Below the pieces are notes generated by a model that worked only from the letters and a program-made list of their open reading frames with translations, was not told the DNA's origin and searched no databases. From contig CAZJPE010000004.1 in the NCBI GenBank assembly GCA_964547875.1, positions 30,598 through 93,472 on the forward strand: 62,875 nt of DNA, in the 5' to 3' direction. The stretch's first letter is position 1; the number at the start of each line of letters is the position of its first letter. The position numbers were made by a program, and so were the translations under genes. This document shows, one piece after another, positions 8,552-59,883 of this stretch. This DNA is from Candidatus Woesearchaeota archaeon (GTDB lineage Archaea > Nanobdellota > Nanobdellia > Pacearchaeales > GW2011-AR1).

Positions 8552-8668
8552 TTTTACTTTAGTTGATTTATGTATAAAAACATAATTACGTTTAAATATT
8601 TAAAGCTTTCGATTTTTAGACTTTTAGTTAAGAGGATTTTACAATAAGTTTTTGGAATTAAGATTTAA

Positions 8669-29600: not shown

Positions 29601-30251
29601 TATTCCATTAATTCTTACTCTGCTTCCGGGGGTGATCCATTCCTCCATTTTCGGATCAACTAAGTCTTCTTTTAGAAACGAGTTTATTCTTCTTGGTTGT
29701 TCTCCGCCTTCTAATGTATCAGGAGATTCTTCAATAACAATGCGCTGTACATCAACCATTTCTTTTGAGAGTATTTTAAAATTGCCTTTCCAATTGCAGG
29801 AGCATCTTGAGGGCTCTCTGAATTTTCTGTCAACTTGCAAGACTGAAAGAATTGCGCCGCAGCTCGGACATTCAAAGCGAGCATTCACAACTTGGGGCCT
29901 AACTTCTGATGCCTGCTTGACTATACCCTCTACGCTTAATAGCTGATCAAGATGTTTTGCTCTAATATCTCGGATTTTTATGTTTAGTGTCTGTGGGACT
30001 TCTAATAATCTTATTCGCGGATTTTTTATGAATTCTGATTCTTCCAAGGCATTTTCTAATAATGCGAGCGTTTCCTCTGGTTTGTCTATTATGTTATCAG
30101 CAAGTCTTGGCGAGAATTTTGATAATTTTGGAAATGGCAACTGAATTACCCGCTCGCCTTTTCTTGCAGATTCAATTATTTCCTCTTTTCTCGCATTGAA
30201 AAAACTTTTTGCTTCCAGGGACAATTCTTCATATTCTCTCTTTTTTTCCAT
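26697..30251 (-). CDS. mcm: MCM replicative helicase precursor containing one intein
   Basis: Zn finger, GDPGVAKS, IDEIEKM, SRFD, ITARQLE. Confidence 0.97.
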   Translation of the reverse strand: MEKKREYEELSLEAKSFFNARKEEIIESARKGERVIQLPFPKLSKFSPRLADNIIDKPEETLALLENALEESEFIKNPRIRLLEVPQTLNIKIRDIRAKHLDQLLSVEGIVKQASEVRPQVVNARFECPSCGAILSVLQVDRKFREPSRCSCNWKGNFKILSKEMVDVQRIVIEESPDTLEGGEQPRRINSFLKEDLVDPKMEEWITPGSRVRINGILKEVPVPLPAGISTRFDIALEVNNTIALEESFENLKIRDEDIKEILELAADPNIFKRLAQSIAPSIYGFVQIKEAILLQLFGGVKKTKSDGGSTRGDIHILLVGDPGVAKSVMLKFIASIAPKGRYVSGKAATAAGMTAAVVKDEFLRGWSLEAGAMVLSNKGLVAIDEIEKMNEHDRSTMHEAMEQQCYHKDLELTFTDGSKEKVGKFVDSIMEKNKERTQQGINCEILPLNQDIKILTTDFESIYPVKINKISRHLAPKNLVKITLNNGRSIIVTPEHPCWAIKEGRITTIPAAMLRINEFFPIPGELPIEGEKQTFNKKPWENGPQLCKLLGYHISDGCYELNRGKKNGIQFSNKNKDLIEDYANAIDSIFNKKPLITYSNDKYAVRVISKDIADFMKSLDGNLMEKGTLKAIPGEIMKCKNEDLTFLLRALFDGDGTVVNVKRNGCRIGLISENARLAEQVTELLLRFGILSSIYIDKEFYRVDISGQANILKFYQNIGFLSKKKQKRLEEYLKKQKTYRSISDIVPNVTNKIREIFKTLKINQQKYLKNQICLNCNKHRVFLQKMINIAEEKIDRLLQAKEKIKNSDNSKVLGQIREYLELSVLNISNKLKITDYVLSQHEKKGVQNKKYKEIIYLEIENMLAILTELRELKKLAFGKIRWSKIKSVETIANNDKWVYDITIKPTHSFISNNMVLHNSVTISKANIQASLRAETTVLAAGNPKLGRFDPYTPIPQQIDISPALLSRFDVIFIIRDIPNKSIDEAIATHVLEEHKQEVIRNIIEQKLFRKYIAYAKQKVKPKLTDEAIEEIKNFYVRLRNQSVKTESDIKPIPITARQLEGIVRLAEAHAKIHLRKEVTPKDAKKAIELLKTSLSQVGYDEETKTFDIDRITTGITSSKRGKILAVKETILQLESRLGKLIPIEELEKLLIDKISKAELEEALEQLSKVGDIFKPKKGYIQKI
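27495..29036 (-). mobile_element. 514-aa intein with LAGLIDADG homing endonuclease
   Basis: AMEQQ|CYHKD...TPEHP...LLGYHISDG...LRALFDGDG...WVYDITI...VLHN|SVTISKA. Confidence 0.95.
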
Positions 30252-38564: not shown

Positions 38565-40895
38565 TCAAAATAACTTGGCCTGTTTTGAATTTTGAATTAG
38601 AGAATCAAAATCTTTGTTTAATAAAGTCAGAATTTGATTTGCTATTGGCTTGATTTGTTTTTCTATATAATGTTCGTAATCTATTTTATGCTTGAGTTTT
38701 TGTATCGGCTCTGGACCATTAGTTGTTTGATAGTATTCTATTATATTGGTATCTAATCTTTCCAATTGCCTTGCTGCCTTTACATGCGGGGGTGTTGTTT
38801 TTGTGTATTCTTCTAAAGACTTACGGATTGATTTTCTGTACTTTAACTTATTGTCTAACTCACCTGATTCTATTTTTTTTACATAATCTTTTATGAAACT
38901 AGAAATTTCTTGCTTTTTGAATACTTTTTTTAATAGTTCTTTTTGGAATTCCTGCGCTGCCTCTGTCCAATCGCCCCTTATAGCTTCTAACCCTGTAATT
39001 TCAACCTGCTCTCCACTGCTTGTTTCTATTAAGCCTGCATAGCGCTTTTTCGCGGCTAATTCTTGCCCCCTTAATTTTGGAATCATCAATGAAAGATATT
39101 GCTTTTCAAATTCTAATTCTAGATATGATGTCCGATTGTAATTTTTTTTAATGTAGTCTTTATAGAAATTATTTATGTGTTCTTGAATTTTGTATCCAAG
39201 AGAATTTGCTTTTTCTTTTCCAAGATTTGTTTCTACAAAGACAGAATCTGTATCTAAATAAATTACCTTATATCCTAATTTTTCTATTTCTTTAGCTGTA
39301 AGCTTGATTATAAATTGACCGAAGTGAGTTATTGCATTTGCCATCTTTAGATTAAAAAAGCGGCAGTTTGGGCTTGCGAGAACGCCAAAAAAAGAATTCA
39401 TTATGATTTTTATCGCATAGCTCGAGAGTTCTCTTTTTTCTCGCTTTGCTTTTTCTCTTGCCTGATGCAGCTTCTCTATGATTTCCGGTAGAATACCATC
39501 TTCATTTTTAAAGTATGCTTTGTTTGGAGATTCAATTGCATTTTTTTCTTTTTTTTCCAAATAAGATGCTGGATCAATATTGAATGTTTTTATTATTGAA
39601 GGATACAGGGACTTGAAATCTAGGATTAATACGTTGTTGTAAATTCCAGGGTTTGAAGATTGAACATAACCTCCTGTGATGCGCTCTTCTTTTAAACCGA
39701 ATTTTGTTGTTGGGCAGACTAATCTTTTTTCTCTTGCCTTTCTTATGTATAGTGAATCAAAGGCGACTATTGAGCCGGTTATTCTGTCTAAAGGAAGGCC
39801 TGTTAGCTGCGCTCTTTCAACTGCCAAGTCAATTATTTTTGTTTTTTCTAGAATATTATAAACTAACTGGCAATCCATTATGTTATAATCTGCTAATTTT
39901 TGATGCGCGTCTTGAGAGTTTTTTTCGTATAATGCTTCTATCTCTTCGTGCCTGGACTTGCCCTTAATAAGCTTTCCTGAATTTAGTATAGCTTGCGAGA
40001 CATCTTCTAAAGTGTACGATTCAAATTTAGCGTGCTTTATTGTCGGAGCTTCTTGGATAAATGGATCACGGATTAAATAGAGGGCATCTAAAATCTGCCT
40101 GCCCGTAGCTTCTGCCGTTGATGTCCTAAAAAAGTCAGATTCTATCCTCAGGCGAAGAGCGTCATTATTCCTGCCTATGTCAAATGGGATTTTATTTTTA
40201 TTGAATAAAACTCTAAGATAAACTAAATCAAAACCTATTAAATTCCAGCCTATTATTATGTCGGGGTCTAACTTTAATAATTCTGACTTGAATTTTTCCA
40301 AGCAATCAGTTTCATCTTTGCAGGGCATTACATTTTTTAGTTTTTGAGAAGTTATCATAAAAACTTTCCTCTCGTTTTCTGAATAAATGCCGATGCAAAA
40401 TAGCTTTCCAGTTTTTTTGCTTGATTCGGTGTCTATTGAGGCAATTTTTAATTTTGGCTTGAATTCATTTATGGGAGAGATTTTCGGGTTTTCATAAATA
40501 CAATCAATTTTTTCAGATGAATAATAATCGCCCTCTATTTCTATTGCGCCAAGGATGTTATTGTCTATTAAGAAGCGATAATGCGGTTTGATATCTGCCT
40601 CATAAGTATTTATTTTTTTGTGAATGACTTGATGGAGCTTGTTTATTTCTGCCTGCGTGTTTGCTGATATTTTAATTACTTTCTCTTTATTGAAATTTGT
40701 GTAGTCTGTTTTTTCTATTTGATATTTTGTCAGAAGCTTATCTATTTTTCGCAAATCTTCTTCTTTTATGTAGAAATATGGCTTTATTTTGCTTAGAGTG
40801 ACAAATGACCTGTTATTTTCGAGTCTTCCATATAGCTGAATTATTGTTTCATTGTTTATTGTAATATAAGTTGGATATATTATGTAGCCTTTCAT
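38565..40895 (-). CDS. polB: Family B DNA polymerase, bacterial Pol II-like
   Basis: Exonuclease motifs IDTE, GWN...FD, YNIMD; polymerase motifs DFKSLYPSII, KIIMNSFFG, DTDS, KKRYAG, PPHVKAAR, GPEP, DYEHY. Confidence 0.95.
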   Translation of the reverse strand: MKGYIIYPTYITINNETIIQLYGRLENNRSFVTLSKIKPYFYIKEEDLRKIDKLLTKYQIEKTDYTNFNKEKVIKISANTQAEINKLHQVIHKKINTYEADIKPHYRFLIDNNILGAIEIEGDYYSSEKIDCIYENPKISPINEFKPKLKIASIDTESSKKTGKLFCIGIYSENERKVFMITSQKLKNVMPCKDETDCLEKFKSELLKLDPDIIIGWNLIGFDLVYLRVLFNKNKIPFDIGRNNDALRLRIESDFFRTSTAEATGRQILDALYLIRDPFIQEAPTIKHAKFESYTLEDVSQAILNSGKLIKGKSRHEEIEALYEKNSQDAHQKLADYNIMDCQLVYNILEKTKIIDLAVERAQLTGLPLDRITGSIVAFDSLYIRKAREKRLVCPTTKFGLKEERITGGYVQSSNPGIYNNVLILDFKSLYPSIIKTFNIDPASYLEKKEKNAIESPNKAYFKNEDGILPEIIEKLHQAREKAKREKRELSSYAIKIIMNSFFGVLASPNCRFFNLKMANAITHFGQFIIKLTAKEIEKLGYKVIYLDTDSVFVETNLGKEKANSLGYKIQEHINNFYKDYIKKNYNRTSYLELEFEKQYLSLMIPKLRGQELAAKKRYAGLIETSSGEQVEITGLEAIRGDWTEAAQEFQKELLKKVFKKQEISSFIKDYVKKIESGELDNKLKYRKSIRKSLEEYTKTTPPHVKAARQLERLDTNIIEYYQTTNGPEPIQKLKHKIDYEHYIEKQIKPIANQILTLLNKDFDSLIQNSKQAKLF

Positions 40896-46652: not shown

Positions 46653-47021
46653 ATGGCAGACATATTTGAACAAAAGATTTTTTGCAAGAGATGCGATGTT
46701 GAGATGAAGCCTTGCATAGTTGAAAAATCTGGAGTAGAATTAAGAGCTGTAAGATGCGATGAATGCGGGGAGAGGATTATTCGTCCTGCTGATCTGAATT
46801 GCTTGGAGCACTTCAAGAATTTAAAAGGAAAAACTTTTAATGTTAAATTGAGAATGGTTGGAAATAGTCATGCCATTAGCATACCAAAGGAGATTATTAA
46901 TTTTATGAATGAGACGCATAAGAGCATGAAAGAAGAAATGGATAGTATGGTTAAATTATGCTTTGAGGATTTTAGGAGATTAAGCCTTATATTTGGCGAC
47001 GAGGAGGAAGATGCAAAATGA
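46653..47021 (+). CDS. Zn-ribbon + AbrB-like DNA-binding protein
   Basis: CKRC...CDEC; [18 protein letters not shown]. Confidence 0.8.
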
Positions 47022-49306
47022 AATCAAAAAGCGATGATATAAAGTTAAAGGTTGTTGAAGCGTTGCAGGATGACGTTTATAAGGGAGTTGCCAGAATAGA
47101 CCCTAATCTGATGAAAGCAATGGGATTAAATAGAGGGGATTTTGTTTCTATCGCAGGAACGAGAGAGACTGTTGCGATTGTAGATAGGGCTTATCCTGCT
47201 GATGTTGGAGAGAGAATAATTAGAATAGATGGATTGATAAGGAAGAATGCGAGGACAGGTGTTGGAGAGCAAGTTAGGATAAGAAGAGTTAATATGGTGC
47301 CTGCAAAAAAAGTTTCTATTGCACCTGCGCAAAAGGGATTGATGATACACGCAGATCCAGAGCTGTTTAAAAATGGATTGTTAGGGAGGGCTGTTATGAA
47401 GGGAGATCTGATATCTTTGGGAGGGGTGCAGAGAAGAAGAGATTTGATGAGCGAGAATTTTCACGATATCTTTGGGGATCTGAATGATTTTTTCGGAGGG
47501 GGATTTGGATTTTCTGGATTTCAGCAGATGAAGTTTTTAGTTGTTTCTACAGCGCCAAATCAGGCATGTATTATTAACGAATATACTGAAGTTACTCTTA
47601 ATCCAAAGGCAGTTGACATTGGAGAAGAGATTATACCTGATGTTACTTATGAGGATATTGGAGGATTGCAGGATGAAGTGAGGAAGGTAAGGGAGATGGT
47701 TGAGCTGCCTTTAAAGCATCCAGAGATTTTTGACAAGCTTGGCATTGAGCCTCCTAAGGGAGTTATATTGCATGGGCCTCCTGGAACAGGAAAGACGTTA
47801 TTAGCAAAGGCAGTTGCCAACGAATCTGATACTCATTTTATTTTATTAAACGGGCCAGAGGCTATGTCAAAATTTTATGGAGAGAGCGAAAAGAGAATCA
47901 GGGATATTTTTGAAGAGGCAGAAAAGAATGCGCCTTCAATTATTTTCATTGACGAGATTGACGCGATAGCTCCCAAGAGAGAGGATGTACAGGGCGAGGT
48001 TGAGAGAAGGGTTGTTTCGCAACTGCTTACAATGATGGATGGTTTGAAATCAAGAGGGAGAGTGATAGTTATAGGAGCAACTAACAGAGTTAATTCTATT
48101 GATCCCGCGTTGAGAAGGCCTGGAAGGTTTGATAGAGAGGTAAATATCTCTGTGCCTGATAAGGGGGGGAGATTGAATATCTTGAAGATTCATACTAGAA
48201 ATATGCCTTTGTTTAAGAACGTTAATCTTGATATTTTGGCTGGGAAGACACACGGTTTTGTTGGAGCAGATTTGAGCGCATTAACTAAGGAGGCTGCAAT
48301 GAATGTCTTAAGAAAACTATTGCCTGAATTAAAGCTAGAGGACAACGAGCCGATACCTCCAGAAGTTTTGGATAAAATAGTTGTTAGGGCAGAGGATTTT
48401 GATGATGCGTTAAAGGTTGTTAGACCTAGTGCGATGCGCGAGGTTCTTGTTGAGGCGCCCAATATTTCATGGGGCGATATCGGAGGGCTTGAGCAGACAA
48501 AACAGGCTTTGAAAGAGGCAGTTGAGTGGCCGATAAAACATGCTCACGGATTTAAAAATTTAGGGATTAGGGCGCCTAGAGGAATATTATTATATGGGCC
48601 TCCTGGAACAGGAAAGACGTTATTAGCAAAGGCAGTTGCTAAGGAGAGCGAGGCGAATTTTATTAATGTAAAAGGACCTTCTTTGCTTAGCATGTGGGTT
48701 GGAGAGAGCGAAAAAGGAATTCGAAAAGTATTTGAGAGGGCGAGGCAAGTAGCTCCTTGCGTTATTTTCTTTGACGAGATAGATGCTTTAGCAGGAAAGC
48801 GAGGCATTGATATGGGAGCTAAAGTAACAGAAAGAGTCTTGAATCAGCTTTTGGCAGAGATGGACGGATTAGAGGAGATAAAAGACGTTACTGTCATTGC
48901 TGCAACTAATAGGCCTGACATGCTTGATGCAGCTTTGCTAAGAGCAGGAAGATTTGACAGAGTAATTTTAGTTGACATGCCTGACGCAGCTTCTAGAAAA
49001 AAGATATTTGAGGTTCATACAAGAAAAGTGCCGTTAGCAAACGATGTTGACATTAATGAGATTGTCAAGATTACAGATGGCTTTGTCGGGGCAGATATTG
49101 AGAGCTTTGTGAGAGAGGCTGCTATGAATGCTATGAGAGCAGACATTAATACGAAGACTGTAACAAAAAAAGATTTTGAAGAAGCATTTGCAAAGATTAA
49201 GCCGAGTGTTTCAAATGAAACAGCCAAGCGCTACAGAAAACTTGAGGAATATTATTTGAAGAGCGCCAAGGCGGGAATGGAGGTTGGGCCTATTTATGCG
49301 GGATAA
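47018..49306 (+). CDS. cdc48: Cdc48/VAT AAA+ ATPase
   Basis: N-domain and two AAA modules ([12 protein letters not shown], RxGRFDR). Confidence 0.97.
47772..48639 (+). repeat. Perfect 46-bp direct repeat at the two Walker A motifs of cdc48
   Basis: ATGGGCCTCCTGGAACAGGAAAGACGTTATTAGCAAAGGCAGTTGC at 47772-47817 and 48594-48639. Confidence 0.95.
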
Positions 49307-49822: not shown

Positions 49823-50710
49823 TTAGGCAGTCGTGATAATTTTTTCTTTTTCTGTCAGCAAAACTGTGTGCTCGGCTTGCGCGACTTTTTTTCCTGATTT
49901 TTCTATTAATTGAGGGTAGTGATGCAATAGATTTGAGGATTCTATCTGCCTTAATGCGAGCAAACCACGTGTGCCAAATTTTTTGTAAATCCATCTTGCA
50001 CAGAATGGAAGAGTTTTATATTCTTCTTTAATAAACTGCAAAACAGAGCGGGCGAAATTATCTCTTATGTTTCCTTCTTTTTGCAGGTGATATATTCCTG
50101 ACGGCTTGCCTTCTTTCACAGAGCCGACTCCTAATGTCGTGAATGGCTCTATTGCATATAGCCCTTGCGAGATTTTTATTTCTTGGGCATTGTCAAAGTT
50201 TGGAATAGTAATGCCTGCATGAAGATTATAATTTGATATTGAATGCCCAGAGAGATTTATTATCGGCTGAACATTATTTTTTTTGCATGTTTTTTCAATT
50301 ATAGAGCCTATGTCTCTTAATTTTACGCCCAGATTTATTTTTTCAAGCGCATTGTCTCTTGCTTCTTCTGCTGTTTTTATCAGGTTTTTATTTTCTTCTG
50401 AATTTTCCAAGTCAAGAGAGAAGGCGGTATCTGCTATATGCCCATTGATATGAATTCCTATGTCTATTTTTAATAAGCTATGGGCTTTTGTTTCGTCATT
50501 ATAAGTAGGGGTTGAATGCGCTGCGACTTCGTTTATTGATAGATTTACAGGAAAAGCGGGCTTTGCATTTAACTCGAGAATTTTATTATCTATTTTATTC
50601 GCAATTTCTAATAAAGGCGTGTCTTTCTTAATTATGGATTTTGCGTATTCTATTACTTCTTTGGCAATTTTTCCTGCCTTGAGCAAATTTTCAATTTCTT
50701 CTTGATTCAT
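49823..50710 (-). CDS. map: Methionine aminopeptidase type II
   Basis: AAH, KIDIGIHING.IADTA, NLSGH, AIEPF, AQAEHT. Confidence 0.95.
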   Translation of the reverse strand: MNQEEIENLLKAGKIAKEVIEYAKSIIKKDTPLLEIANKIDNKILELNAKPAFPVNLSINEVAAHSTPTYNDETKAHSLLKIDIGIHINGHIADTAFSLDLENSEENKNLIKTAEEARDNALEKINLGVKLRDIGSIIEKTCKKNNVQPIINLSGHSISNYNLHAGITIPNFDNAQEIKISQGLYAIEPFTTLGVGSVKEGKPSGIYHLQKEGNIRDNFARSVLQFIKEEYKTLPFCARWIYKKFGTRGLLALRQIESSNLLHHYPQLIEKSGKKVAQAEHTVLLTEKEKIITTA

Positions 50711-51515
50711 TTTTGCGATGTTTTACAATTTTTGGTTTGTATGATATTATAAATATGGTTATTATAAGGATAATTATCAAAAGTGCTAGATTAAATAGTA
50801 TTTGATAATTATTTTTAATTCTCTGTGTTTTGCCTGATGAGATATTTTGCTTTTCTTCATAAGATATATTTCTCCCGCTTAGAGGCGTTGTTTCATTTAT
50901 TTTATCTTCTGGTATTTTAGGAGGCTCTGTTCCTGATGCTTTTTCTGAGGAGCTCCCTGACGAGCCTGTGCCTTGTGATTGACATTGGCCGCAATCTGTT
51001 GGACAATTGCTGCAGGATTCTTCTATGTTGCAGATCGCATTTCCGCAGGAAGGCGCAGAGTTATTTATAATGAAATTTACTTCTGAAAAATTTATTCTAT
51101 TGGCGCTGTCGTTTGCGTATATTTTTAGAGCATAATTTCCTTCTGGAAGACTAATATAAAAAGGGGCAAAAATTGTGACATTTTCTTGATCGTTTATAGA
51201 GTACCATATTGAATCGAGAGCGATATCGAGAATTGTGTAATTGACTAAGAGAGGCGTTACATTATTATATACTGTGTTCTTTGGATTTATTATATTAACA
51301 ATAGGTGATTCGCCATCAATAACAATTCTTATATCGCTTTGCTCGGATGGGCTAAGAGATTGCTGTGCTTGGGAAAATGGTATCAAGAAAAAAATAAGCG
51401 ACAATAGGATGTAGAGAACTGCGTACAAAAATGTGCTATAATTTACGCAGTTCTCTAATGGATAACTGCTGATACGTGAGCTATAAACAATGTAGTTATC
51501 CATAATGTTATTCAT
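50691..51515 (-). CDS. Secreted, C-terminally anchored protein (Ig-like domain, Cys-rich module, S/G linker, TM); putative filament base
   Basis: Signal, LSPSEQSDIRIVIDG, Ig-like domain, CGNAICNIEESCSNCPTDCGQC, TM with basic tail; start uncertain. Confidence 0.7.
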   Translation of the reverse strand: MNNIMDNYIVYSSRISSYPLENCVNYSTFLYAVLYILLSLIFFLIPFSQAQQSLSPSEQSDIRIVIDGESPIVNIINPKNTVYNNVTPLLVNYTILDIALDSIWYSINDQENVTIFAPFYISLPEGNYALKIYANDSANRINFSEVNFIINNSAPSCGNAICNIEESCSNCPTDCGQCQSQGTGSSGSSSEKASGTEPPKIPEDKINETTPLSGRNISYEEKQNISSGKTQRIKNNYQILFNLALLIIILIITIFIISYKPKIVKHRKNESRRN

Positions 51516-51539
51516 GATAAAGAATAATTTTTCTATTAT

Positions 51540-52118
51540 TTAAACTTGCTTTCTTCTTTTTATCAGTTTAGCAGAAATTATTATACTGAGTATTATTATG
51601 ATAATTATAATTATTGCAGATATCGTACTTATGTTTGTTTTTTTTAGGTTCGCTGGCTGTTCCGTCGTATTAATTAGAACCGCTGTTTTTTCTCCAACTA
51701 TGATTGGGAGTTCTCTTATATGTTGCAAGCGGAGCTGTATGTTTCCTTCTTTTTCTTCTGGACTAGGCGTTACAGCAAATTTTATGCTGTAAGAATCGCC
51801 TATTTTTGCATTTTGCGGAATAGACACTTTTATTATTATTTTATTATCATTTGAGCCAGGAGGAACTATGAACTCTTCTTCGCTGATGATTTCTGCTATC
51901 CCTGCACTTTCAATTAAAGAGACAATGGCTCTTGCAGGAGATTTTTCTTCAATGCTATTTTTGAGAGTAAATGATACTTCTTTTGTCTCGCCAGGATACA
52001 TTTTTAATGGATTGTCTTCCCAATATGGAGAATCTACGCCAAGAGCTAGAACAGAGCCTATGCTAATTACGAGAGTTAATATCAGAGTTGCGAATTTTAG
52101 CTTATTGTCATTATCCAT
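51540..52118 (-). CDS. Secreted Ig-like protein with C-terminal TM (paralog of 53062-53655)
   Basis: GVDSPYWEDNPLKMYPGETKEVSFTLKN. Confidence 0.75.
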   Translation of the reverse strand: MDNDNKLKFATLILTLVISIGSVLALGVDSPYWEDNPLKMYPGETKEVSFTLKNSIEEKSPARAIVSLIESAGIAEIISEEEFIVPPGSNDNKIIIKVSIPQNAKIGDSYSIKFAVTPSPEEKEGNIQLRLQHIRELPIIVGEKTAVLINTTEQPANLKKTNISTISAIIIIIIIILSIIISAKLIKRRKQV

Positions 52119-52990
52119 CCACTTGCTCCTGTCGCAGAATAGAACTGCGAACTGATTGCGCTTGGTACTAGTGTAAGGCAGTATGCTATTGTTTCTGTAT
52201 TCGAGCCAGATGGCCCTCTTGGGAGATTAACACTGGTTATTGGAGTTATAACATTATTTGACAAAGCATTTCCTGTTGAGCATACTACGGCTGCTCCTGA
52301 CGAACCTGCTGCTCTAAGATTGGTTGCGGGGATGAGCTCTGCAGGAAGAGTTTCTCCAGCGAGGTCGAAAGCTGTGATGCTTAATGTGCCCGGAGGGGCC
52401 TGGAAATTGCCTCTATTTGTAACTGTAGTTGGCGAGGACGATATAACATTAGACGCTCCTTGGACAACTGTTGGGAAATTTACTATTGTAGGAGATATTG
52501 TTATATCTGTTAATAAATTAACTGAAAACGTTGACGAACTTGTTCCTGTTAATCCTGCAGAGTCTTGAATGCTTACTGCAACATCCCATGTTCCAGGTGC
52601 ATCAAAATATTGCATTGTTACTGTACATTGATATGTTCTTTCAGTACCTGTTTGGGAGAGAAATACACAACTTCCTGTTCTTGTTGGCTCACCTGTTTTT
52701 GTAAAGCTTGATGATGCAGAGGCATCATTTAGGTCTGTGACATCATTAGGGTCTGTGGCAGTAAATGTAAATAAGACATTTGTTGTAGAAGGAGCAGGAT
52801 TTAGACTTACAGGAGAGATTGGCGATATACTTGTGATTGATGGGGCAACATTTCCTACTTCAATTCTGACATCAGTGGACTGAGAAGGGGCTAATCTTAC
52901 ATTTTTCTTGAACCAATCAGCAATACCTGCTGTCGCAAAAGGCAGAATCATCAAGACCAATAATGTTATTACAATAAACTCTTTTTTCAT
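52097..52990 (-). CDS. Secreted two-domain beta-sandwich protein; putative major filament subunit
   Basis: Signal peptide, S/T-rich, four Cys, no TM anchor, own TATA; ends FYSATGASGWIMTIS. Confidence 0.75.
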   Translation of the reverse strand: MKKEFIVITLLVLMILPFATAGIADWFKKNVRLAPSQSTDVRIEVGNVAPSITSISPISPVSLNPAPSTTNVLFTFTATDPNDVTDLNDASASSSFTKTGEPTRTGSCVFLSQTGTERTYQCTVTMQYFDAPGTWDVAVSIQDSAGLTGTSSSTFSVNLLTDITISPTIVNFPTVVQGASNVISSSPTTVTNRGNFQAPPGTLSITAFDLAGETLPAELIPATNLRAAGSSGAAVVCSTGNALSNNVITPITSVNLPRGPSGSNTETIAYCLTLVPSAISSQFYSATGASGWIMTIS

Positions 52991-53010
52991 GCTAAGAAAA
53001 GCAGACCTTT

Positions 53011-53040
53011 CTTTAAAAAGATTTCTTTTATGTTAAGTAT
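53011..53040 (-). promoter_or_regulatory. TATA box plus one copy of the ATACTTAAYAT motif upstream of the putative major subunit
   Basis: TTTTAAAG (minus strand, 53018-53011); ATGTTAAGTAT at 53030-53040. Confidence 0.5.
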
Positions 53041-53061
53041 GTGTAGGTTCATGATATTTTT

Positions 53062-53655
53062 TCATATGGCGTACTCGCGGTATTTATGGTTTTTTATTAG
53101 TAGGGATATTATAAAAATTAATATTATAATAATCATCGCTATTATTGATATAATTATTGTTGAGAAAATCTTTGCAGTGGATTTTGGAGATTCTGAAATT
53201 TCTGATGGTTGCTTTTCTTCTACCGGTTTTTGTTTAATTTCTTCTCCACTAATGATCACAGGAAAAGAGGCTGTTATACCTGTTGAGAGCTGTAACATCT
53301 TTCCTTCATCTTGCGATACTTGCTCGAATAGGATTGTTAGCTGATATTTGTCATTGACTTTGGTATTATTTGGAATTTTTATTTTCAAATTGGCTTTTAT
53401 GTCGTTTCTGCCAAATGGGACAGGATAATTTTGATTTTCAAGCGTTGCAATTTCGCTTCCGTTTATTATTTCTGCCCTTAATGTGAGGTCTTTTCCTCCC
53501 ACCATGTTTTGAAGGATGATAGGAACCTCTTTTGTTTCTCCAGGCACCATTATTAGCGGGCGATCTTTCCAATAAGGAGGAGTGGCTCCGAATGCGCATG
53601 CAAAATTAATTAGTAATAAAACTATTACTATTGGGATAGATGCTTGTCTTATCAT
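53062..53655 (-). CDS. Secreted Ig-like protein with C-terminal TM (paralog of 51540-52118)
   Basis: GATPPYWKDRPLIMVPGETKEVPIILQN. Confidence 0.75.
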   Translation of the reverse strand: MIRQASIPIVIVLLLINFACAFGATPPYWKDRPLIMVPGETKEVPIILQNMVGGKDLTLRAEIINGSEIATLENQNYPVPFGRNDIKANLKIKIPNNTKVNDKYQLTILFEQVSQDEGKMLQLSTGITASFPVIISGEEIKQKPVEEKQPSEISESPKSTAKIFSTIIISIIAMIIIILIFIISLLIKNHKYREYAI

Positions 53656-56600
53656 TTTGGCATTGATTTTAATTTTTTAATTGCTCGCGAGTAGAGCGTA
53701 TAAATATTTCTTGGGTCTTTATTTAATATTTTAGAGATTTCTGTGTTCTTTAATTCTTTTTCTCTTAAGTTATAGATTAGTGATTCTAGGATGCTAAGCT
53801 TTCTGTTGGAGAAGATATCTATTGGGATAGAGATAGATGTTTTTCTTATGTTTATTTTCTCTTTCATTTTTCTGACCGCATTTCTATAATTTATCCAAAT
53901 TGTTCTTTGGTTTCTGTTAATTAATTTTTCAATTTCACTGAATTTTAATCCGAGGTTTTCTTTTAGGTATTTGGCTAAGGACTCTGCCGCACCTATTTTC
54001 TGATTAAACAGTTCTATTGGAATTTTTATTTCCTTTGTTTTCTTTATTAACAATAATTCATCTAGGGTTGTATCATATTTGTCTTTTAATTTTTCATTTA
54101 GTACTTCTAACAGATTTTCTTTGGTGAGGACTTTCTTCCTTTTCTTTCTTTTTATCTTAAGAGTGGCAAATGCGAGACTAATCTCCCATATACTGCCTAT
54201 TAATGTTGAGTATCTTTGTGCTTTTAGGTTGTCAGGGACATTTTCCAGGCAGATGAATAATTGCTCTTGTCCTTCGCCGATTGAGTTGTCTCCTCTAAGG
54301 AGCGTTGCTCCTGCAATAAGCGTTGTTGCAGCATGAGCCATTATAGTTCCAGGATCAGAAAGCGAGCATAAGTTGACAGTATGAACAGTAAAACTATTAG
54401 CAGGAATTTTATAAGATGAATCTGTTTCTCCTAAAATGTCAAATGCCTTGACTTGCAGTATTCCTTCTTTATTACATGTGTTACTGATAATAATCGGATT
54501 GTTTGAAGCAAGTTTTTCGGCATCGCCTGGAAAGAGAGTTGGCCATTCCCAGAATGCTGGAGATATTGTTATACACGCGGTTTCTAGCAAAATAAATGTT
54601 TCAGAATATGGGGCTGAAAATCCATTGCTTTGATCTTGAATTTCCGCACTTACTGTCCATGTTCCAGGAGCATCAAAATATTGTATTCCTATTGTACAGC
54701 TATATTGCGTGGTTGTTATATTGATATCAGAGACAAAAGAGCATGCGCCTGTTCTCGTTACAGAATCTTTTGTAAATTGCGTAGTTATAGTTGCATCGTT
54801 TATATCAAATGCCCCGTTTGCATCTGTGACTTGAACAGTAAATGTCACATCTGTTATGCCTGATTCTGTTACTATTTGATCTGGGATGTTTGAGATATCA
54901 TCTATTGTCGGAGAGATATTATCGCAGACCCCTGTCCATTCTGTGCCATCAAGATTGAAGGTTTTTGTTGCAACTGCTCCAGTATTTGTGGTATATGCAA
55001 AGAGGAATTTATTGTCGCAGATAGAGGTTTGTGCTATTGGATTAGGATTTGGTATTAGCGTGTCTTTTCCATAGATGTCAAATAATAGACTAGTTGTATT
55101 TTCATCAGACGCTAGAATAAATGGGCCTTGCCTTAAGATTCCAGAGGAATCGTATATTGCTGCTTGAATATTATCTGCATTTCTATCATTCCAAGCAACA
55201 GCAAACCAATCTATTGGATCTGAACTGCTTTTTATTGTTGCCATTGCAATCCTTGATTGTGTGCCAGAATTTGCATCTACAAGAGTAGGAGCAAGAATTA
55301 TGTTATTGTTTACGTCTCTTATAGCAATTTGAATATTTTGTGAGGCAGAATCATACCAGCCCATTGCAAAATAATTGTTATTTAATGATGTAATTGCGAC
55401 TTGACCTGTTTCTCCTATGTTTGTGTCTATATCAGCTAGGACAATATTTACACTGTTTTGGTCTCTTATTGAGAATGTTGCATCGTTAGATGCATCATCA
55501 AAATATATTAATGCAAATCTTGTATTTGTTATGGAGGTACATGAAATGAGATTTTGCAATCCTAATGTGGCGCCAACAGATGTATCAATATTTGTTTCTA
55601 AACCAGCACCCCATGTACCATAATTGACTGTTATTACATCTGCGTCATCTTCTATATCATCTATATAACAGGCCTGAAATCTATCGAGCATATCGATAAT
55701 TTCTATATCAACTGAAGGAGTTCCTACTGCAGTCTCGATATCTGTAGCAGGAATGTTTATGCTTTCATCTTTATTATAGACAGCATATGTTATATCCTGA
55801 TCAATACCATCGTACCAACTTAAGATAAACGTAGAAGAATCAATAGCTTTAACAGCAACTCTTGAATTACCATTTACTTCTGTATCTGCGTCAATTGTAT
55901 TTGTTAATGGAGTGCCATTTGTACCATATATGATAAATGATATGTCATCTTCTGTGTCATCAACCCAAGCAAAAACAAAAGTGCTATTATCAAGAGTTGT
56001 TAATGCGACATCTAGGGAAGGTTGGATATCCGCTATAATAAATGGGTCAATAATATGATCAAATTCCAGATACGAATCTTTTTTCTCATTAAGACTTTTT
56101 ATTTTAAGATCAAAAGTATCATGCTCGCCCTGTAATTCTGTTAAATAGATTGTATAATAGCCTTCTTTTTTTATTATTGGAAATTCTGCTATTTTCTGCG
56201 TCGTGTTATAATAATAAATTTCTATTATTATTCTTTCTTTTTCTGGATTTCTCGCATAGAGCGTTATATCTTTTGTAGAATCAAGTTTTTCCTCAAATGA
56301 AACTCTAATAAACTCGTTATGATAAATTGGTTCGCTCCATATTTCATCTAACTCTTTTACTTGTTCATAAATATTAGAAATAAGATCTTTATTCTCATCT
56401 AGATGTTCTGCGTTTGTTATTTGTATTATTATTTCAAAGATATCATCTGATGAAGGAGCGTTCCACTCAACGCTATCTAAATATTCATTATTATCTGTAT
56501 CAAGCGCTTTAAATTCTAAATATTTCTTTTCTTTATTAGAATATATTTTTATAAATCTTTTATCTTTAGTGATTTCCTCTATGCTAATAGAAGCCAGTAT

Positions 56601-58082
56601 ATTTTTATATTCTATTCCTTCTGGGACAGAAATAGCAACTATCTTTTTCTCGTTTAATTCTTCTTCTTTTAGAGTTGGAGCAGGTAAGACATATTCTATT
56701 TCATATATTCCGGAATCTTCTTCTAATTTTATGTCTGTTTTATTCTCGGAAATTATTTCTTTCTCGATTTGATCTTTTTTAATTTTAATATCCGTTGCCA
56801 TTGCCGGGATTTTAATATTTATTTCGCCTTCTTCTTTTATTATTTTCTTTTTCCATTTTACTGGTTTTCCTATTGCAATTCTTTCTTCAGAATTGTCTTC
56901 TATTATGCTGAAATTATTTATCTCTAATGATGTATTTTTTGAGAATGAGATTATTTCGGAATCATTCAAATTATTTGAACTATCCCAGCAGTAATATCTG
57001 ACGCTATAATCTCCATCAGTTATATTTAAATTTGATATGAAATTAACATTATCTTGGGATTGCATTGTGTAGTTGCTTATTCCTTCGTCAAGTGAATAAT
57101 TGCAATCTCCTTTTTCGTTAAGAGCAAGCTCAAAATCAACTAATTCTAAATTGTAAATAGCATTGAATTGCGGTTTTTTTATTGTTAGTTTTGGAGGGAT
57201 TATGTCGGAATAACTAACTCTGAAATATAGGGCATTGAAATTGAATATATCCTGCCCTTCACCATTAATTTTCAGTGCTTGCGCTTTTGCAAATGCTTTT
57301 GCGCCGTTTTCATTAAAGAAATTATCACAAATCCAGTTTTCGTCTGCTGTAAAATCAATGAATTCCAATCTAGAAGAAGATATTTCATTGCAATCTATGT
57401 TTTTTTCAGTCCATGATTCTCCTGCATTTGCGTCTACACCAACAACGCACTGATGGTCTTTAGAATTATTTAATGTATAGAATTCATAATATAGTAGCAC
57501 TTGGTCTATTTTATCGCAATTTATAATTGAATTGTCGTGGGATTCTATACTAATTCCAGCATAAGTTGATAATGAATTAAATATTGTTTCTTTATTGCTC
57601 GCATAAATTTCTTCACAGGAATTAGAAAATAAGTTTTTATCTAGTTCTTCACTTTGTTTTAGGCATGATTGCATCTTTAATTCTATTGTTTCTTTTTCTG
57701 TGGGCGCGAGAAATAATTTTTGTTTTGAATATCGAGATGATAGCAATATAGTGAATATAAATAAAGATATTAAAAGTATAAAGATAGTTATTACAAAAAC
57801 TGAAATTAAATTTTTTTTTATATTTCTATCATAGTCTTCTACAAGCTTTTTACACGAATCAATGTATTTATCATAGTAATTTATCCATTCTTCTGCTGAT
57901 TTATTACCTGGCAAATTATTCAATATTTTTTTATATTCATCAAGAGAAATTTTTCTATTTTGATAATTTATCAAGGTTTTTTGCACCTTATTTATTATCT
58001 CTTTTTTATACCCTTCGGCCAGATAGATTTTCTTATTTAGTTCTCTTTTTCGTTCTTCTAATTGCTCTTTTTTTGATGACAT
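53652..58082 (-). CDS. 1476-aa multidomain surface protein: coiled coil, TM, Ig-like, propeller-like repeats, subunit-like module, tandem HTH
   Basis: TM near aa 92-114; repeats F..AW.D....DI...IY; module sharing QYFDAPGTW with 52097-52990; two IPI.(L/I)F...ES...(F/N).EI.K..N...R.I...Y..A repeats. Confidence 0.8.
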   Translation of the reverse strand: MSSKKEQLEERKRELNKKIYLAEGYKKEIINKVQKTLINYQNRKISLDEYKKILNNLPGNKSAEEWINYYDKYIDSCKKLVEDYDRNIKKNLISVFVITIFILLISLFIFTILLSSRYSKQKLFLAPTEKETIELKMQSCLKQSEELDKNLFSNSCEEIYASNKETIFNSLSTYAGISIESHDNSIINCDKIDQVLLYYEFYTLNNSKDHQCVVGVDANAGESWTEKNIDCNEISSSRLEFIDFTADENWICDNFFNENGAKAFAKAQALKINGEGQDIFNFNALYFRVSYSDIIPPKLTIKKPQFNAIYNLELVDFELALNEKGDCNYSLDEGISNYTMQSQDNVNFISNLNITDGDYSVRYYCWDSSNNLNDSEIISFSKNTSLEINNFSIIEDNSEERIAIGKPVKWKKKIIKEEGEINIKIPAMATDIKIKKDQIEKEIISENKTDIKLEEDSGIYEIEYVLPAPTLKEEELNEKKIVAISVPEGIEYKNILASISIEEITKDKRFIKIYSNKEKKYLEFKALDTDNNEYLDSVEWNAPSSDDIFEIIIQITNAEHLDENKDLISNIYEQVKELDEIWSEPIYHNEFIRVSFEEKLDSTKDITLYARNPEKERIIIEIYYYNTTQKIAEFPIIKKEGYYTIYLTELQGEHDTFDLKIKSLNEKKDSYLEFDHIIDPFIIADIQPSLDVALTTLDNSTFVFAWVDDTEDDISFIIYGTNGTPLTNTIDADTEVNGNSRVAVKAIDSSTFILSWYDGIDQDITYAVYNKDESINIPATDIETAVGTPSVDIEIIDMLDRFQACYIDDIEDDADVITVNYGTWGAGLETNIDTSVGATLGLQNLISCTSITNTRFALIYFDDASNDATFSIRDQNSVNIVLADIDTNIGETGQVAITSLNNNYFAMGWYDSASQNIQIAIRDVNNNIILAPTLVDANSGTQSRIAMATIKSSSDPIDWFAVAWNDRNADNIQAAIYDSSGILRQGPFILASDENTTSLLFDIYGKDTLIPNPNPIAQTSICDNKFLFAYTTNTGAVATKTFNLDGTEWTGVCDNISPTIDDISNIPDQIVTESGITDVTFTVQVTDANGAFDINDATITTQFTKDSVTRTGACSFVSDINITTTQYSCTIGIQYFDAPGTWTVSAEIQDQSNGFSAPYSETFILLETACITISPAFWEWPTLFPGDAEKLASNNPIIISNTCNKEGILQVKAFDILGETDSSYKIPANSFTVHTVNLCSLSDPGTIMAHAATTLIAGATLLRGDNSIGEGQEQLFICLENVPDNLKAQRYSTLIGSIWEISLAFATLKIKRKKRKKVLTKENLLEVLNEKLKDKYDTTLDELLLIKKTKEIKIPIELFNQKIGAAESLAKYLKENLGLKFSEIEKLINRNQRTIWINYRNAVRKMKEKINIRKTSISIPIDIFSNRKLSILESLIYNLREKELKNTEISKILNKDPRNIYTLYSRAIKKLKSMPK

Positions 58083-58088
58083 TATTAT

Positions 58089-58158
58089 ATACTTAATATG
58101 TATGAGAAGTGGCTTATAAATATTGCTATATTAAGTATATAATACTTAATATGTATGA
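58089..58158. promoter_or_regulatory. Operator-like array: 17-bp direct repeat plus inverted copy flanking a TATA box
   Basis: ATACTTAATATGTATGA at 58089-58105 and 58142-58158; ATATTAAGTAT at 58128-58138; TTTATAAG (minus strand) at 58120-58113. Confidence 0.7.
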
Positions 58159-58208
58159 TAAAATTAAATGAAAAATTATGGTTTATTATATAGGTATGGA
58201 GTAATAAG

Positions 58209-58661
58209 TTATTTTCTCAATCTTCTTTCTTTAGGGACGTAGTTAAATATTTTTTCTCCATTTGATTTTCCAGAGCCTACAAAGTCTTTTTTATATTCTA
58301 TTATTATAATACCTCTTTCTGCCTTAATGTTTAAGTCTCTGCCTCTTAACCAATCATTTAATTGCGATTCATTTATTTCTATGATGTTTTTTACTATTTG
58401 ATTTTTTAATAAATGAATTGCATCTAAATTGAGCCTTAATTCTCCATTTTCTTTTTTTAATAAATAAATTCCTATTGATTCTATGTTTATTAATCTTGAT
58501 AAAAATTTAATTTCTTCTTTTAGAAGATTGCCTGAAAATGCTCTGATTTTTTCTTTTCCTGATTCTATTAATAGGTAAGGAAGATTAATTATTCCAAATT
58601 GTTTATTTAATTGTTCTATTATTTTTCTTTTCTTATTTGATTTTATGAAATTTGGGTTCAT
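58209..58661 (-). CDS. NIP7/RsmF C-terminal-like PUA protein
   Basis: WLRGRDL...VGSGK...NYVPKERR; downstream of the m5C methyltransferase. Confidence 0.8.
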   Translation of the reverse strand: MNPNFIKSNKKRKIIEQLNKQFGIINLPYLLIESGKEKIRAFSGNLLKEEIKFLSRLINIESIGIYLLKKENGELRLNLDAIHLLKNQIVKNIIEINESQLNDWLRGRDLNIKAERGIIIIEYKKDFVGSGKSNGEKIFNYVPKERRLRK

Positions 58662-58927
58662 TTTTCTTCTCCTACTAAATATTTACACCCATTTTTGCCT
58701 ATGAGGACTTCATGCGTTTCATAGGCTTTAATATAAATATTATCTTTTGATTTTAATTTTAATATTTTATTTTCTAGAATTATTCTCATTGAGCCATTTA
58801 GAATTATTAATTTAGTGCCATATGGATGATTATGCTTTTTATAAAATTCATTTGGTTTATCTTCCCCAATGTATACTTTTTTAAAACCTTGATTTTCTAA
58901 TTCTTTTTTTAGTTTTTCTTCGTTCAT
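58658..58927 (-). CDS. Cupin domain protein
   Basis: HNHPY...HEVLIGKNGCKYLVGE. Confidence 0.85.
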   Translation of the reverse strand: MNEEKLKKELENQGFKKVYIGEDKPNEFYKKHNHPYGTKLIILNGSMRIILENKILKLKSKDNIYIKAYETHEVLIGKNGCKYLVGEEK

Positions 58928-59883
58928 TTCACTTCCTCCAACAAAGTTAATTTAGCGAGGAAAAAGCCTTCACTATCATTATCTTGTGGATAGATTCTAC
59001 ATGCTTTTGTTGTTTCTTGGTTAAATGCTTTTTCTTCCCATTCTGTTGTGCCTTGCCTGCATTTCAAGGGTAATGAAATCGATTCAATTTTAACTGGGAA
59101 GTTTCTTAATGTAAAATCTATGATTTCCTCGTTTTCTTCAGGGGCATGAGTGCAGGTTGAATAAACTAGAGAGCCCCCTTGCTTTAGGCATTTTAATGCA
59201 AAGGCCATAAATTTTTTCTGCTGTCTTGAGAGTTTTTTTATTACATCTAGATTCCAAATTAAGAATGTTTTTGGACTTGAGCGAAGAGTGCCCTCGCCTG
59301 AGCAAGGGGCGTCTAAGAGAATTTTGTCAAATTTTATATTTGAACTTGCGAATTTAGAGCATAGAGCTATTGCGTCATTTTTTGTTATAATTGTATTTGT
59401 TATTCCGCATCTTTCTAGATTTGCTGATAGAATTTTTATTCTGTCGAGTTTTAAATCATTAGCAATAATTGTACCTTGATTGTTCATGCTTGCCGCTATT
59501 TGCGTTGTTTTCGAGCCGGGCGAGGCGAATAAGTCTAAGATATATTCGTCTGGCTTTGGGTTTAGCGCTAAAATGGGAAGCATTGATGAAATTTCTTGTA
59601 TGTAATAATAGCCTAGGATATGCTCTATGGAATTTCCTAATTCTCCTGGCAAAAGTGTGGATTTTATTAGCATTACTTCTGGATAATTTTGAAAAGGCTG
59701 TTCAACATGCCATTTTTTTTGTAGATGAGCAAATAATTCTCGTGGCTGGATTTTTAGCGTGTTGCAACGGATAAAGTTTTTCGGAGATGTATGTATAATT
59801 TCGTTAAATTTCTTGAAATCATCTGGATTTGGCATGAGTTTTTCCAGCCTTTCTTTGAATAATGGCTTTAGCTCTGGCTTCAT
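58924..59883 (-). CDS. NOL1/NOP2/Sun RNA m5C methyltransferase
   Basis: ASPGSKT, ILLDAPCSGEG, YSTCT..PEENE. Confidence 0.95.
   Translation of the reverse strand: MKPELKPLFKERLEKLMPNPDDFKKFNEIIHTSPKNFIRCNTLKIQPRELFAHLQKKWHVEQPFQNYPEVMLIKSTLLPGELGNSIEHILGYYYIQEISSMLPILALNPKPDEYILDLFASPGSKTTQIAASMNNQGTIIANDLKLDRIKILSANLERCGITNTIITKNDAIALCSKFASSNIKFDKILLDAPCSGEGTLRSSPKTFLIWNLDVIKKLSRQQKKFMAFALKCLKQGGSLVYSTCTHAPEENEEIIDFTLRNFPVKIESISLPLKCRQGTTEWEEKAFNQETTKACRIYPQDNDSEGFFLAKLTLLEEVK

Follow-up and report, generated by a model that had tools for sequence, protein, structure and literature searches.

DPANN archaea spend their lives attached to other cells, yet few signalling systems can be recognised in their genomes. 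This raises the question of how contact is sensed and how the large surface proteins of these archaea are controlled. A gene of Candidatus Woesearchaeota archaeon (assembly GCA_964547875.1) poses this question in a particular form: why would a giant surface protein end in a pair of domains that resemble DNA-binding regulators? The gene lies in a stretch of 62,875 nucleotides that was analysed as a whole (the window; contig CAZJPE010000004.1, positions 30,598 to 93,472), where the open reading frame (ORF) at 53652-58082 on the minus strand encodes a protein of 1,476 amino acids. Its end, residues ~1295-1476 plus the TGA stop (53652-54200), carries two helix-turn-helix (HTH) domains. We find that the DPANN gene for this HTH-tail fusion is genuine and conserved, that the same HTH pair occurs in free-standing form next to genes for membrane or secreted proteins, and that a palindromic motif recurs upstream of these genes. 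The sequence evidence gives a somewhat better than even chance that the tail is cytoplasmic and autoregulates its own operon, either tethered to the membrane or after cleavage.

Translation of the ORF with table 11 is stop-free up to the terminal TGA, so alternative genetic codes are unnecessary, and the uninterrupted fusion claimed in a first-pass annotation of the window holds. The protein ends in ...AQRYSTLIGSIWEISLAFATLKIKRKKRKKVLTKEN...LKFSEIEKLINRNQRTIWINY...LKNTEISKILNKDPRNIYTLYSRAIKKLKSMPK, followed by the stop. The stretch LIGSIWEISLAFATL precedes a basic cluster, KIKRKKRKK, and two HTH domains that resemble sigma-70 region 4 and Tfx; the junction text reads YSTLIGSIWEISLAFATL, KIKRKKRKK and then two similar units with LKFSEIEKLINRNQRTIWINY and LKNTEISKILNKDPRNIYTLY before the stop codon. 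The genome that contains the window spans 947.6 kb in 13 contigs and is 93% complete. The genes that neighbour the giant gene (for a type II methionine aminopeptidase and a Nop2-type methyltransferase) are archaeal, and database homologues are named Woesearchaeota or Pacearchaeota.

Fusions in metagenome assemblies call for caution, because a lost stop, a frameshift or a mis-join could produce a fusion that does not exist. This genome is a metagenome bin, and the sole run that holds the stretch, a groundwater metagenome, is probably its source; no RNA data containing the stretch are listed among the runs searched. A Logan contig of run X1 spans positions 53600-54600 with 0 differences and 0 gaps. 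Since run X1 is probably the bin's own source, this agreement excludes a binning or assembly slip yet is not independent. The 166-amino-acid tail was also searched against 61 related genomes and gave 20 matches in 15 of them. Of these matches, 15 close open frames of 592 to 4,533 amino acids; the other five are cut by contig ends, and three of these retain the junction or the basic cluster at the edge. When a profile of the tail (A1) was searched against 1.84 billion representative proteins, 2,218 matches were obtained at E ≤ 1e-3 and 885 at E ≤ 1e-30. Among the best 149 matches, 68 are at least 800 amino acids long (up to 5,919) and have the module at their extreme end, and some of the matched proteins carry two or three copies of it. 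Thus, the fusion and its junction motif recur in many genomes and hundreds of database clusters. Furthermore, no in-frame start codon from which a separate HTH gene could be read occurs from the junction up to M1400, and for this reason we rejected the possibility that the tail is a gene of its own. An artefact is therefore extremely unlikely.

The comparison with reads and homologues that the first-pass annotation proposed likewise comes out in favour of the fusion, which is kept within the order and agrees in the second assembly. That annotation had also considered that reads might show a stop or frameshift at the junction and that homologues might encode the HTH pair separately. Neither a stop nor a frameshift is present in the second assembly. 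Other lineages do encode the HTH pair as a gene of its own, but there it stands upstream of the surface-protein gene. The number of HTH units also varies among database proteins: P0008, P0009 and P0058 have four or more, either in free-standing proteins (223-247 amino acids) or in a 384-amino-acid tail of a 5,919-amino-acid protein.

What kind of domains form the tail? It begins with a helical linker (residues 1318-1350, 54033-54131, minus strand; LLxxLxxxLKxKYxxxxxEL) that is also found at the N-terminus of the free-standing members of the family. HTH unit 1 (residues 1351-1412, 53847-54032; IPIELF...LKFSEIEKLINRNQRTIWINYRNA) and the sigma-70 region 4-like or Tfx-like HTH unit 2 (residues 1413-1476, 53655-53846; IPIDIF...LKNTEISKILNKDPRNIYTLYSRA) follow. 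AlphaFold2 (AF2), run on an alignment of 11 tails, models both units with a predicted local distance difference test score (pLDDT) above 90 and the junction with low confidence, and each unit consists of a short strand (IPI) and four helices. The Pfam model Sigma70_r4_2 (PF08281) matches residues 1428-1471 of the whole protein with 23.8 bits, under its cut-off of 25.7, and the C-terminal 186 amino acids alone with 30.9 bits, above this gathering cut-off; all 11 homologous tails are matched. The units are mutual repeats, given that unit 1 of the window aligns with unit 2 of homologues with E-values of 1e-9 to 5e-11. Structural comparison with VIA-align, which gave matches for unit 2 only, placed it closest to EnfR (8hno; Z 9.1, root mean square deviation [rmsd] 1.4 over 50 amino acids, 30% identity), sigma-28 region 4 (1rp3; Z 9.0) and SigW region 4 on −35 DNA (6jhe; Z 8.6), the latter two with an rmsd of 1.6-1.8 over 50-51 amino acids. 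The tandem arrangement as a whole was unmatched when the tail was compared with the PDB by Foldseek at E ≤ 1e-3, and only local HTH matches were found. In this way, Pfam, AF2, VIA-align and the cross-unit alignment all bear out the earlier description of the tail as two sigma-70 region 4-like HTH repeats.

The tail nevertheless belongs neither to the bacterial sigma factors nor to the Tfx family. The giant protein is not a sigma factor, because it has no sigma region 2 (Sigma70_r2 is absent from the 1,476 amino acids in Pfam at E ≤ 0.1). NCBIfam sigma models match by their last ~35-40 positions only, with 15-19 bits against cut-offs of 43-206, and identity as a bacterial sigma factor was rejected on these two grounds. 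Tfx comes closer. A Tfx profile matches unit 2 with an E-value of 1.5e-3, but the EnfR model NF053597 scores 17.4 bits on the tail of the window against a cut-off of 260, and the tfx model TIGR00721 matches only 5 of the 11 tails at E ≤ 0.01. Tfx membership was rejected because of scores far under the cut-offs and a different architecture. We propose that the HTH pair represents a new family, comprising tandem sigma-4-like HTH regulators of DPANN surface-protein operons. The proposed members combine linker helices and two HTH units with an adjoining or fused surface gene and upstream copies of the motif TAC-N7-GTA.

In the class, members of this family are commonly free-standing. Short homologues of 157-207 amino acids, encoded on contigs of up to 75 kb, consist of the linker and two HTH units, share 40-60% identity with the tail and have neither a TM (transmembrane segment) nor a signal peptide; a few short homologues have four HTH units. 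At E ≤ 1e-10, the family was found in 157 of 301 sampled genomes of the phylum, a sample whose genomes are all listed in one class and a count that includes the unpublished genomes G303 and G304. Beyond the taxonomic family of the window, the listed matches lie mostly in frames of 160-240 amino acids that cover profile positions ~25-188 and represent free-standing genes. Fusions turned up in the window's family and in genome G244. In the genome of the window, the tail is the only member.

In the loci sampled, free-standing members are consistently linked to genes for membrane or secreted proteins. We assessed 47 loci taken from the best matches (L024-L029 and L031-L071; unpublished genomes were skipped, and L030, a fused case, was excluded). 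In all 47, the next gene lies on the same strand and starts at a distance of −56 to +97 nt, in most cases with an overlap. Its product has a TM within the first 140 residues (within the first 40 residues in 31 and at residues 41-140 in 16). Of these downstream genes, 27 encode 800 or more amino acids, most running past the fetched stretch. As a base rate, the same crude predictor finds such a TM in 269 of the 878 genes of the window's genome, and 35 of the 878 encode at least 800 amino acids. Related genomes are not independent, and the linkage is therefore given without a P value.

Gene order also suggests how the fusion arose. Regulator-giant gene pairs are present at L036, L040, L046, L047, L060, L062 and L065, and in G244 a free-standing copy is located directly upstream of the fused gene. 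The likely origin is such a pair, in which duplication and loss of a stop codon then put the regulator behind the giant. The tail would accordingly be a captured copy of a cytoplasmic regulator whose gene elsewhere heads surface-protein operons and is translationally coupled to the gene behind it.

The promoters of many of these genes share a palindrome. The 126 bp upstream of the giant gene (58083-58208) hold three copies of the element ATATTAAGTAT around TTTATAA. The distal operator-like element (58142-58161, minus strand), which contains TAC-N7-GTA, lies upstream of the TATA-like box. It pairs with an inverted copy at 58128-58138 to give a perfect 11-nt palindrome whose arms are separated by a 3-nt spacer (58128-58152). 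The sequence TTTATAA itself (58114-58120, minus strand) is located ~32 nt upstream of the ATG and presumably serves as the TATA box. The proximal operator-like element (58089-58108, minus strand) is a 20-nt direct repeat of the distal one (95% identical, 53 nt spacing). It ends 6 nt before the start codon and hence probably overlaps the transcription start. Two copies of the 16-mer are present in the window, where 0.08 are expected, and the exact 11-mer occurs three times in the 947.6-kb genome, each time within the promoter of the giant. The same order of element, inverted element, TTTATAA, element and ATG is found at the orthologues in L013 and L014, and the orthologues in L016 and L017 have this layout with near-matches.

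The motif extends to the free-standing genes. In 51 upstream regions (46 free-standing loci, the window and four orthologues), 72 copies of TAC-N7-GTA were found versus 3.6-3.8 expected, which corresponds to a density of 5.2 per kb compared with 0.14 per kb elsewhere in the same loci. The motif is present in 34 of these regions, and 22 have two or more copies. Two factors count against reading too much into these numbers. First, 17 of the 51 regions lack an exact TAC-N7-GTA. Second, the motif had been spotted by eye before it was counted; an unbiased scan was therefore made of all 320 patterns of the form XXX-N5 to N9-reverse complement, in which TAC-N7-GTA ranked top with a ratio of 17.8 and the runner-up reached 4.6. 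Across the whole genome of the window (G000), TAC-N7-GTA has 105 matches, or 0.11 per kb, and this background level means that it is not a general promoter element. The only identical pair within 150 nt in the genome is the one in the promoter of the giant. Because the tail is the sole family member in a 93%-complete genome, no other cognate protein of the family accounts for the conserved operator-like sequence there. The palindrome arms are one helical turn apart and would suit a reader with two HTH units, and operator variants (AAGTA, ACGTA, AGGTA and GAGTA) seem to go with variants of the recognition helix.

A tail that reads this motif would lie in the cytoplasm, which makes the topology of the protein a puzzle. 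A hydropathy scan finds a sole strong TM, a signal anchor at residues ~93-115 (57738-57806, minus strand), the core of which (residues 95-113) has a Kyte-Doolittle (KD) value of 3.14 and a simple Hessa sum of −6.06. The single clear TM near the N-terminus noted in the first-pass annotation is thus real. Then comes a variable, acidic and beta-rich ectodomain (residues 116-1049, 54936-57737, minus strand), a portion of which (residues 552-1053) has a paralogous counterpart in a further giant gene, located on contig C3. It is followed by two immunoglobulin-like (Ig-like) beta-sandwich domains (residues 1050-1304, 54171-54935, minus strand; AF2 pLDDT 87), which the earlier annotation had called a subunit-like module. 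Foldseek returned generic Ig-like matches only for this module (a sialidase linker, integrin, CFA/I pilins and RbmA), which do not single out any one family of pilins or adhesins. The hydrophobic and polybasic junction FATLKIKRKKRKK (residues 1305-1317, 54132-54170, minus strand) is the candidate stop-transfer or membrane-crossing segment.

The junction keeps its character across the family. The motif Y-S-T-x3-G-x-W-x-I-x-I, followed by a hydrophobic stretch and 5-8 Lys or Arg residues, was found by a regular expression in 90 of 149 representative proteins. Among these 90, the hydrophobic stretch consists to 78% of Ala, Leu, Val, Ile or Phe and has a median KD of 2.45. The sequence itself is not conserved. 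The W-x-I-x-I strand must be assigned to the ectodomain for three reasons: secreted paralogues end there, AF2 places the last strand (1300-1304) of the two beta-sandwiches within S-I-W-E-I-S-L-A (model of residues 1050-1345, pLDDT 87), and 43 of the 90 proteins have Arg or Lys at position W+3.

Several observations weigh against a membrane crossing at this point. The KD value of residues 1292-1310 is 1.23, as opposed to 3.14 for the strong TM, and the junction reaches 1.9 in just 4 of 68 giants. Past the last strand, the AF2 model is coil with pLDDT below 50. The secreted paralogues (the product of 52097-52990 and six orthologues) have signal peptides and terminate exactly at the W-x-I-x-I strand, and a second giant of the genome (C1:33648-39686) ends outside the cell at the same strand. 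Only five hydrophobic residues of the window's protein are left between this strand and the basic cluster, which is too short for a canonical TM. Family-wide, the stretch has a median of 9 residues (range 5-18, n = 90), and the uncharged run before the Lys/Arg cluster reaches 15 or more in only 8 of 90, compared with 20-25 residues in the genuine anchors that the operon partners carry at their C-termini in this genome. The ectodomain of the window's protein also shows no enrichment of N-x-S/T sequons (14 versus 15 expected). The topology puzzle posed by the first-pass annotation is therefore real and worse than marginal, in that its WEISL is an ectodomain strand with ~5 hydrophobic residues behind it.

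The same facts are the strength of a reading in which the whole tail is exported, the junction sticks to the outer membrane face or to the host surface, and the basic HTH pair attaches to DNA or some other polyanion outside the cell. For a standard TM the hydrophobic stretch has too few residues, WEISL forms the final strand of a domain that lies outside the cell, and the paralogous giant ends outside at the equivalent strand. In addition, DPANN archaea must scavenge nucleotides. Other properties of the tail are difficult to reconcile with export. Free-standing homologues with 40-60% identity have no signal peptide, the 5-8 Lys/Arg residues right behind the hydrophobic stretch are the usual mark of a cytoplasmic flank, and a sequence-specific palindrome is conserved in the family's own promoters, those of fused genes included. 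Composition points the same way. Family ectodomains contain 4,037 N-x-S/T sequons against a shuffled expectation of 1,840 (2.19-fold), whereas the tails contain 63 against 74.4 (0.85-fold), and Cys residues number 1.21 per 100 amino acids in ectodomains versus 0.33 in tails. Since the window's ectodomain is not enriched itself, the sequon argument is valid family-wide only. In the window's protein, residues 116-1298 contain 18 Cys residues and have a net charge of −104, compared with +23 for the tail. On balance, we consider export quite unlikely.

We favour a cytoplasmic tail because of the free-standing homologues without a signal peptide, the junction, the sequon and Cys statistics and the palindrome in the protein's own promoter, which persists in genomes that have no family member besides the tail. 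The first-pass annotation had offered a marginal second TM that keeps the HTH pair cytoplasmic; the cytoplasmic placement gains indirect support, and the crossing would be a non-canonical one. A sorting signal of the PGF-CTERM/archaeosortase type was rejected, given that 166 residues follow the basic cluster and the hydrophobic part has a median of 9 amino acids, and NCBIfam sorting-signal models have no match in the giant protein. If the tail is inside the cell, then ~9 hydrophobic residues and a Lys/Arg cluster suffice to stop translocation, which would matter for our understanding of membrane-protein biogenesis.

The N-terminal domain (residues 1-92, 57807-58082, minus strand) is presumed to be cytoplasmic as well. 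It is rich in Lys and Glu, helical and conserved (..LEERKxEL..ISxxEY..W-I-x-Y-Y-D.. in an alignment, A3, of 27 sequences). Full-length relatives share this ~90-amino-acid N-domain, followed by a strong TM at ~residue 90-115, and among 49 full-length giants that have both the HTH pair and a TM near the N-terminus, 39 match the A3 profile. The giant protein is its sole match in the window's genome. An A3 search for longer proteins listed at least eight, too small a number to judge co-occurrence with the HTH pair: six have PF08281 in precomputed domain lists, one is the window's own, and one (435 amino acids) is perhaps a fragment. Eight of the 47 genes downstream of free-standing HTH genes also match A3. 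At L029 (genome G068), a 116-amino-acid gene (8425-8775) that overlaps the free-standing HTH gene by 16 nt consists of the N-domain and TM only and as such resembles a small, minimal anti-factor.

In one alternative, the HTH pair would be a cytoplasmic protein-binding module, for example one that docks the N-domain or another partner, and the palindrome would be read by a different factor. Sigma region 4 also binds proteins such as anti-sigma factors, several of the top structural matches of unit 2 are sigma/anti-sigma complexes, and the layout of N-domain and TM is anti-sigma-like, including in the eight downstream genes mentioned above. However, a Pfam scan of the 27 N-domains gave no consistent family and no anti-sigma family. 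The zinc-binding anti-sigma motif HxxxCxxC is absent from A3, although a distant relationship or an analogous fold may have escaped both searches. The strongly basic tail (net +23), palindrome arms that fit a two-HTH reader and a palindrome that travels with the family also make this alternative improbable. A complex prediction for the N-domain with the HTH pair (A1 residues 28-186) scored 0.00 and speaks neither for nor against binding.

Under the explanation that we favour, the giant would loop through the membrane so that its two ends lie in the cytoplasm, and it would consist of the ~90-amino-acid N-domain, the TM, an ectodomain of ~1,200 amino acids, the junction and a 160-amino-acid tail. 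The two HTH units would bind the two arms of the TAC-N7-GTA palindromes that flank the presumed TATA box and overlap the probable transcription start. In archaea, an operator that overlaps the transcription start usually means repression. The amount, insertion state or proteolytic processing of the surface protein could then feed back on transcription of the operon, that is, the giant and four partner genes. A tethered tail would also hold the locus at the membrane beside the site where the partner proteins are secreted.

Another alternative does without signalling. The protein could be a polyprotein whose tail is constitutively cut at or near the junction soon after synthesis, leaving an ordinary soluble regulator with no tethered state, and fusion would merely secure one regulator per surface protein. 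The free-standing form, with the same linker and two HTH units, is the commonest in the class, and translational coupling of the regulator and surface genes in all 47 loci suggests that a fixed stoichiometry matters. Genes for a site-2 protease, two rhomboids and a presenilin-like protease are present in the genome, although such genes are near-universal and therefore no evidence for cleavage. For SPEARE, a giant protein of Nanohaloarchaeota, the ecto part and the part made up of the TM and cytoplasmic region are described as occurring in different size fractions (PMC6642349). On the other hand, no known cleavage motif is evident, and the junction conserves a hydrophobic and basic character rather than a fixed sequence. 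This reading also shares the topology problem, because the tail still must be cytoplasmic. We regard it as rather unlikely.

The most novel possibility is a Notch-like contact sensor. In this case, the ectodomain and the partner proteins would engage a host or substrate, and a change in the junction or an intramembrane cleavage would let the tail leave or reach its operators; the N-domain might act as an in-cis anti-factor that holds the tail. We consider this unlikely, but if true it would carry surface contact to transcription directly, without kinases.

The four partner genes follow the giant on the minus strand. The first (53062-53655) overlaps the TGA of the giant with its ATG (ATGA) and encodes 197 amino acids with a signal peptide, an Ig-like domain and a C-terminal TM; a homologue is present in all six of the relatives' loci examined. 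Next come a 297-amino-acid secreted paralogue of the last two Ig-like domains of the giant (52097-52990), a 192-amino-acid protein with a signal peptide and a C-terminal TM that is related to the first partner (51540-52118), and a 274-amino-acid protein with an N-terminal TM, a weak Y_Y_Y Ig-like domain and a C-terminal TM (50691-51515). The order of the giant and its four partners is kept at all six loci. A scan for terminator-like sites in 50400-58400 found 0 versus 4.5 expected, but this sigma-70-type scan is not meaningful for an archaeon. The secreted paralogues (52097-52990 and the L013-L018 orthologues) have the motif SAG-[FL][FLW]-D-[WF]-x-K-K directly after the signal peptide. Together with the Ig-like fold that they have in common with the last module of the giant, this motif hints at strand-exchange polymerisation onto the giant protein.

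The same genome has a second surface-protein cluster (C1:33648-44002), in which subunit-like and C-terminally anchored small proteins are encoded after a giant. That giant (C1:33648-39686, 2,012 amino acids) stops right after its last Ig-like strand and has no A3 domain, junction or HTH. The cluster thus constitutes a natural unfused control within the same cell. Elsewhere in the window, there are four more long ORFs of 762-1,184 amino acids (26697-30251, 32029-34362 and 38565-40895 on the minus strand and 47018-49306 on the plus strand). The RsmF/Nop2-type methyltransferase next to the giant is apparently split into 58209-58661 and 58924-59883 (minus strand) with a 262-nt gap. The 319-amino-acid ORF corresponds to positions 8-312 of the 480 in the RsmF model and the 150-amino-acid ORF to positions 333-468, the PUA-like domain; these could be two genes or the result of a frameshift or insertion.

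The analysis provides a concrete, testable link from the cell surface to transcription. It describes a large regulator family tied to surface-protein operons, with 2,218 database clusters and members in roughly half of the genomes sampled from the class. It also provides a candidate operator for this family and a lineage in which the regulator became the tail of the surface protein. We found no description of the architecture, the family or the operator in the open-access literature, with subscription journals and supplements outside the scope of the search.

Among characterised proteins, the closest in sequence and fold to unit 2 are those of the Tfx family (Tfx MTH0916 and EnfR TON_1525, 8HNO), which are also archaeal and have a sigma-4-like HTH. 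The HTH motifs of this family are reported to resemble sigma-70 region 4, two members bind promoters, and the proteins have one N-terminal HTH with an acidic alpha+beta C-terminal domain and dimerise (PMC10570040). In contrast, the tail has two HTH units in one chain, lacks the acidic C-terminal domain and stands behind a giant ectodomain. Regulators of the ToxR/CadC type have an N-terminal OmpR-type winged HTH, one canonical TM and a small periplasmic sensor. ArnR and ArnR1 of Sulfolobus are described as membrane-bound factors that control genes for surface structures (PMC6396743). Both groups resemble the giant in that one chain joins the DNA-binding domain to a part in or beyond the membrane. 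They differ from it in that its HTH pair is C-terminal and sigma-4-like, its crossing is non-canonical, and its surface part exceeds 1,000 amino acids and has a partner operon. Assignment to the ToxR/CadC type was rejected because of the C-terminal position and sigma-4 type of the HTH, the lack of a Pfam match to Trans_reg_C in the giant protein or its C-terminal piece, and a junction KD of 1.23.

Bacterial gene pairs for extracytoplasmic function (ECF) sigma and anti-sigma factors often autoregulate. The free-standing loci have a comparable arrangement, with a sigma-4 HTH gene upstream of, and coupled to, a gene for an N-domain, a TM and an outside domain (16 of 47 with the TM at residues 41-140). 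The differences are that sigma region 2 is absent here, that the N-domain has no anti-sigma Pfam match, and that any binding of the HTH pair by the N-domain is hypothetical. To our knowledge, archaea have no bacterial sigma-dependent polymerase. SPEARE proteins are described as giant and mostly extracytoplasmic, with a C-terminal TM and a cytoplasmic part that acts on DNA (PMC6642349). They share with the protein studied here the format of a giant DPANN protein with a conserved C-terminal part that acts, or here presumably acts, on DNA, but this part is restriction-enzyme-like in SPEARE and a presumed HTH regulator here, and a promoter operator is not known for SPEARE. Identity with SPEARE was rejected because type III restriction-enzyme-like, laminin-G and protease Pfam domains are all absent at E ≤ 0.1. 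Finally, Notch, SREBP/ATF6 and bacterial RseA/RsiW illustrate surface receptors with a cytoplasmic transcription regulator that is released by cleavage. Such receptors, which depend on regulated intramembrane proteolysis, share a working principle with the contact-sensor possibility and no homology. What sets the present gene apart is a giant surface protein that terminates in two tandem sigma-4-like HTH units, a combination that none of the compared systems has.

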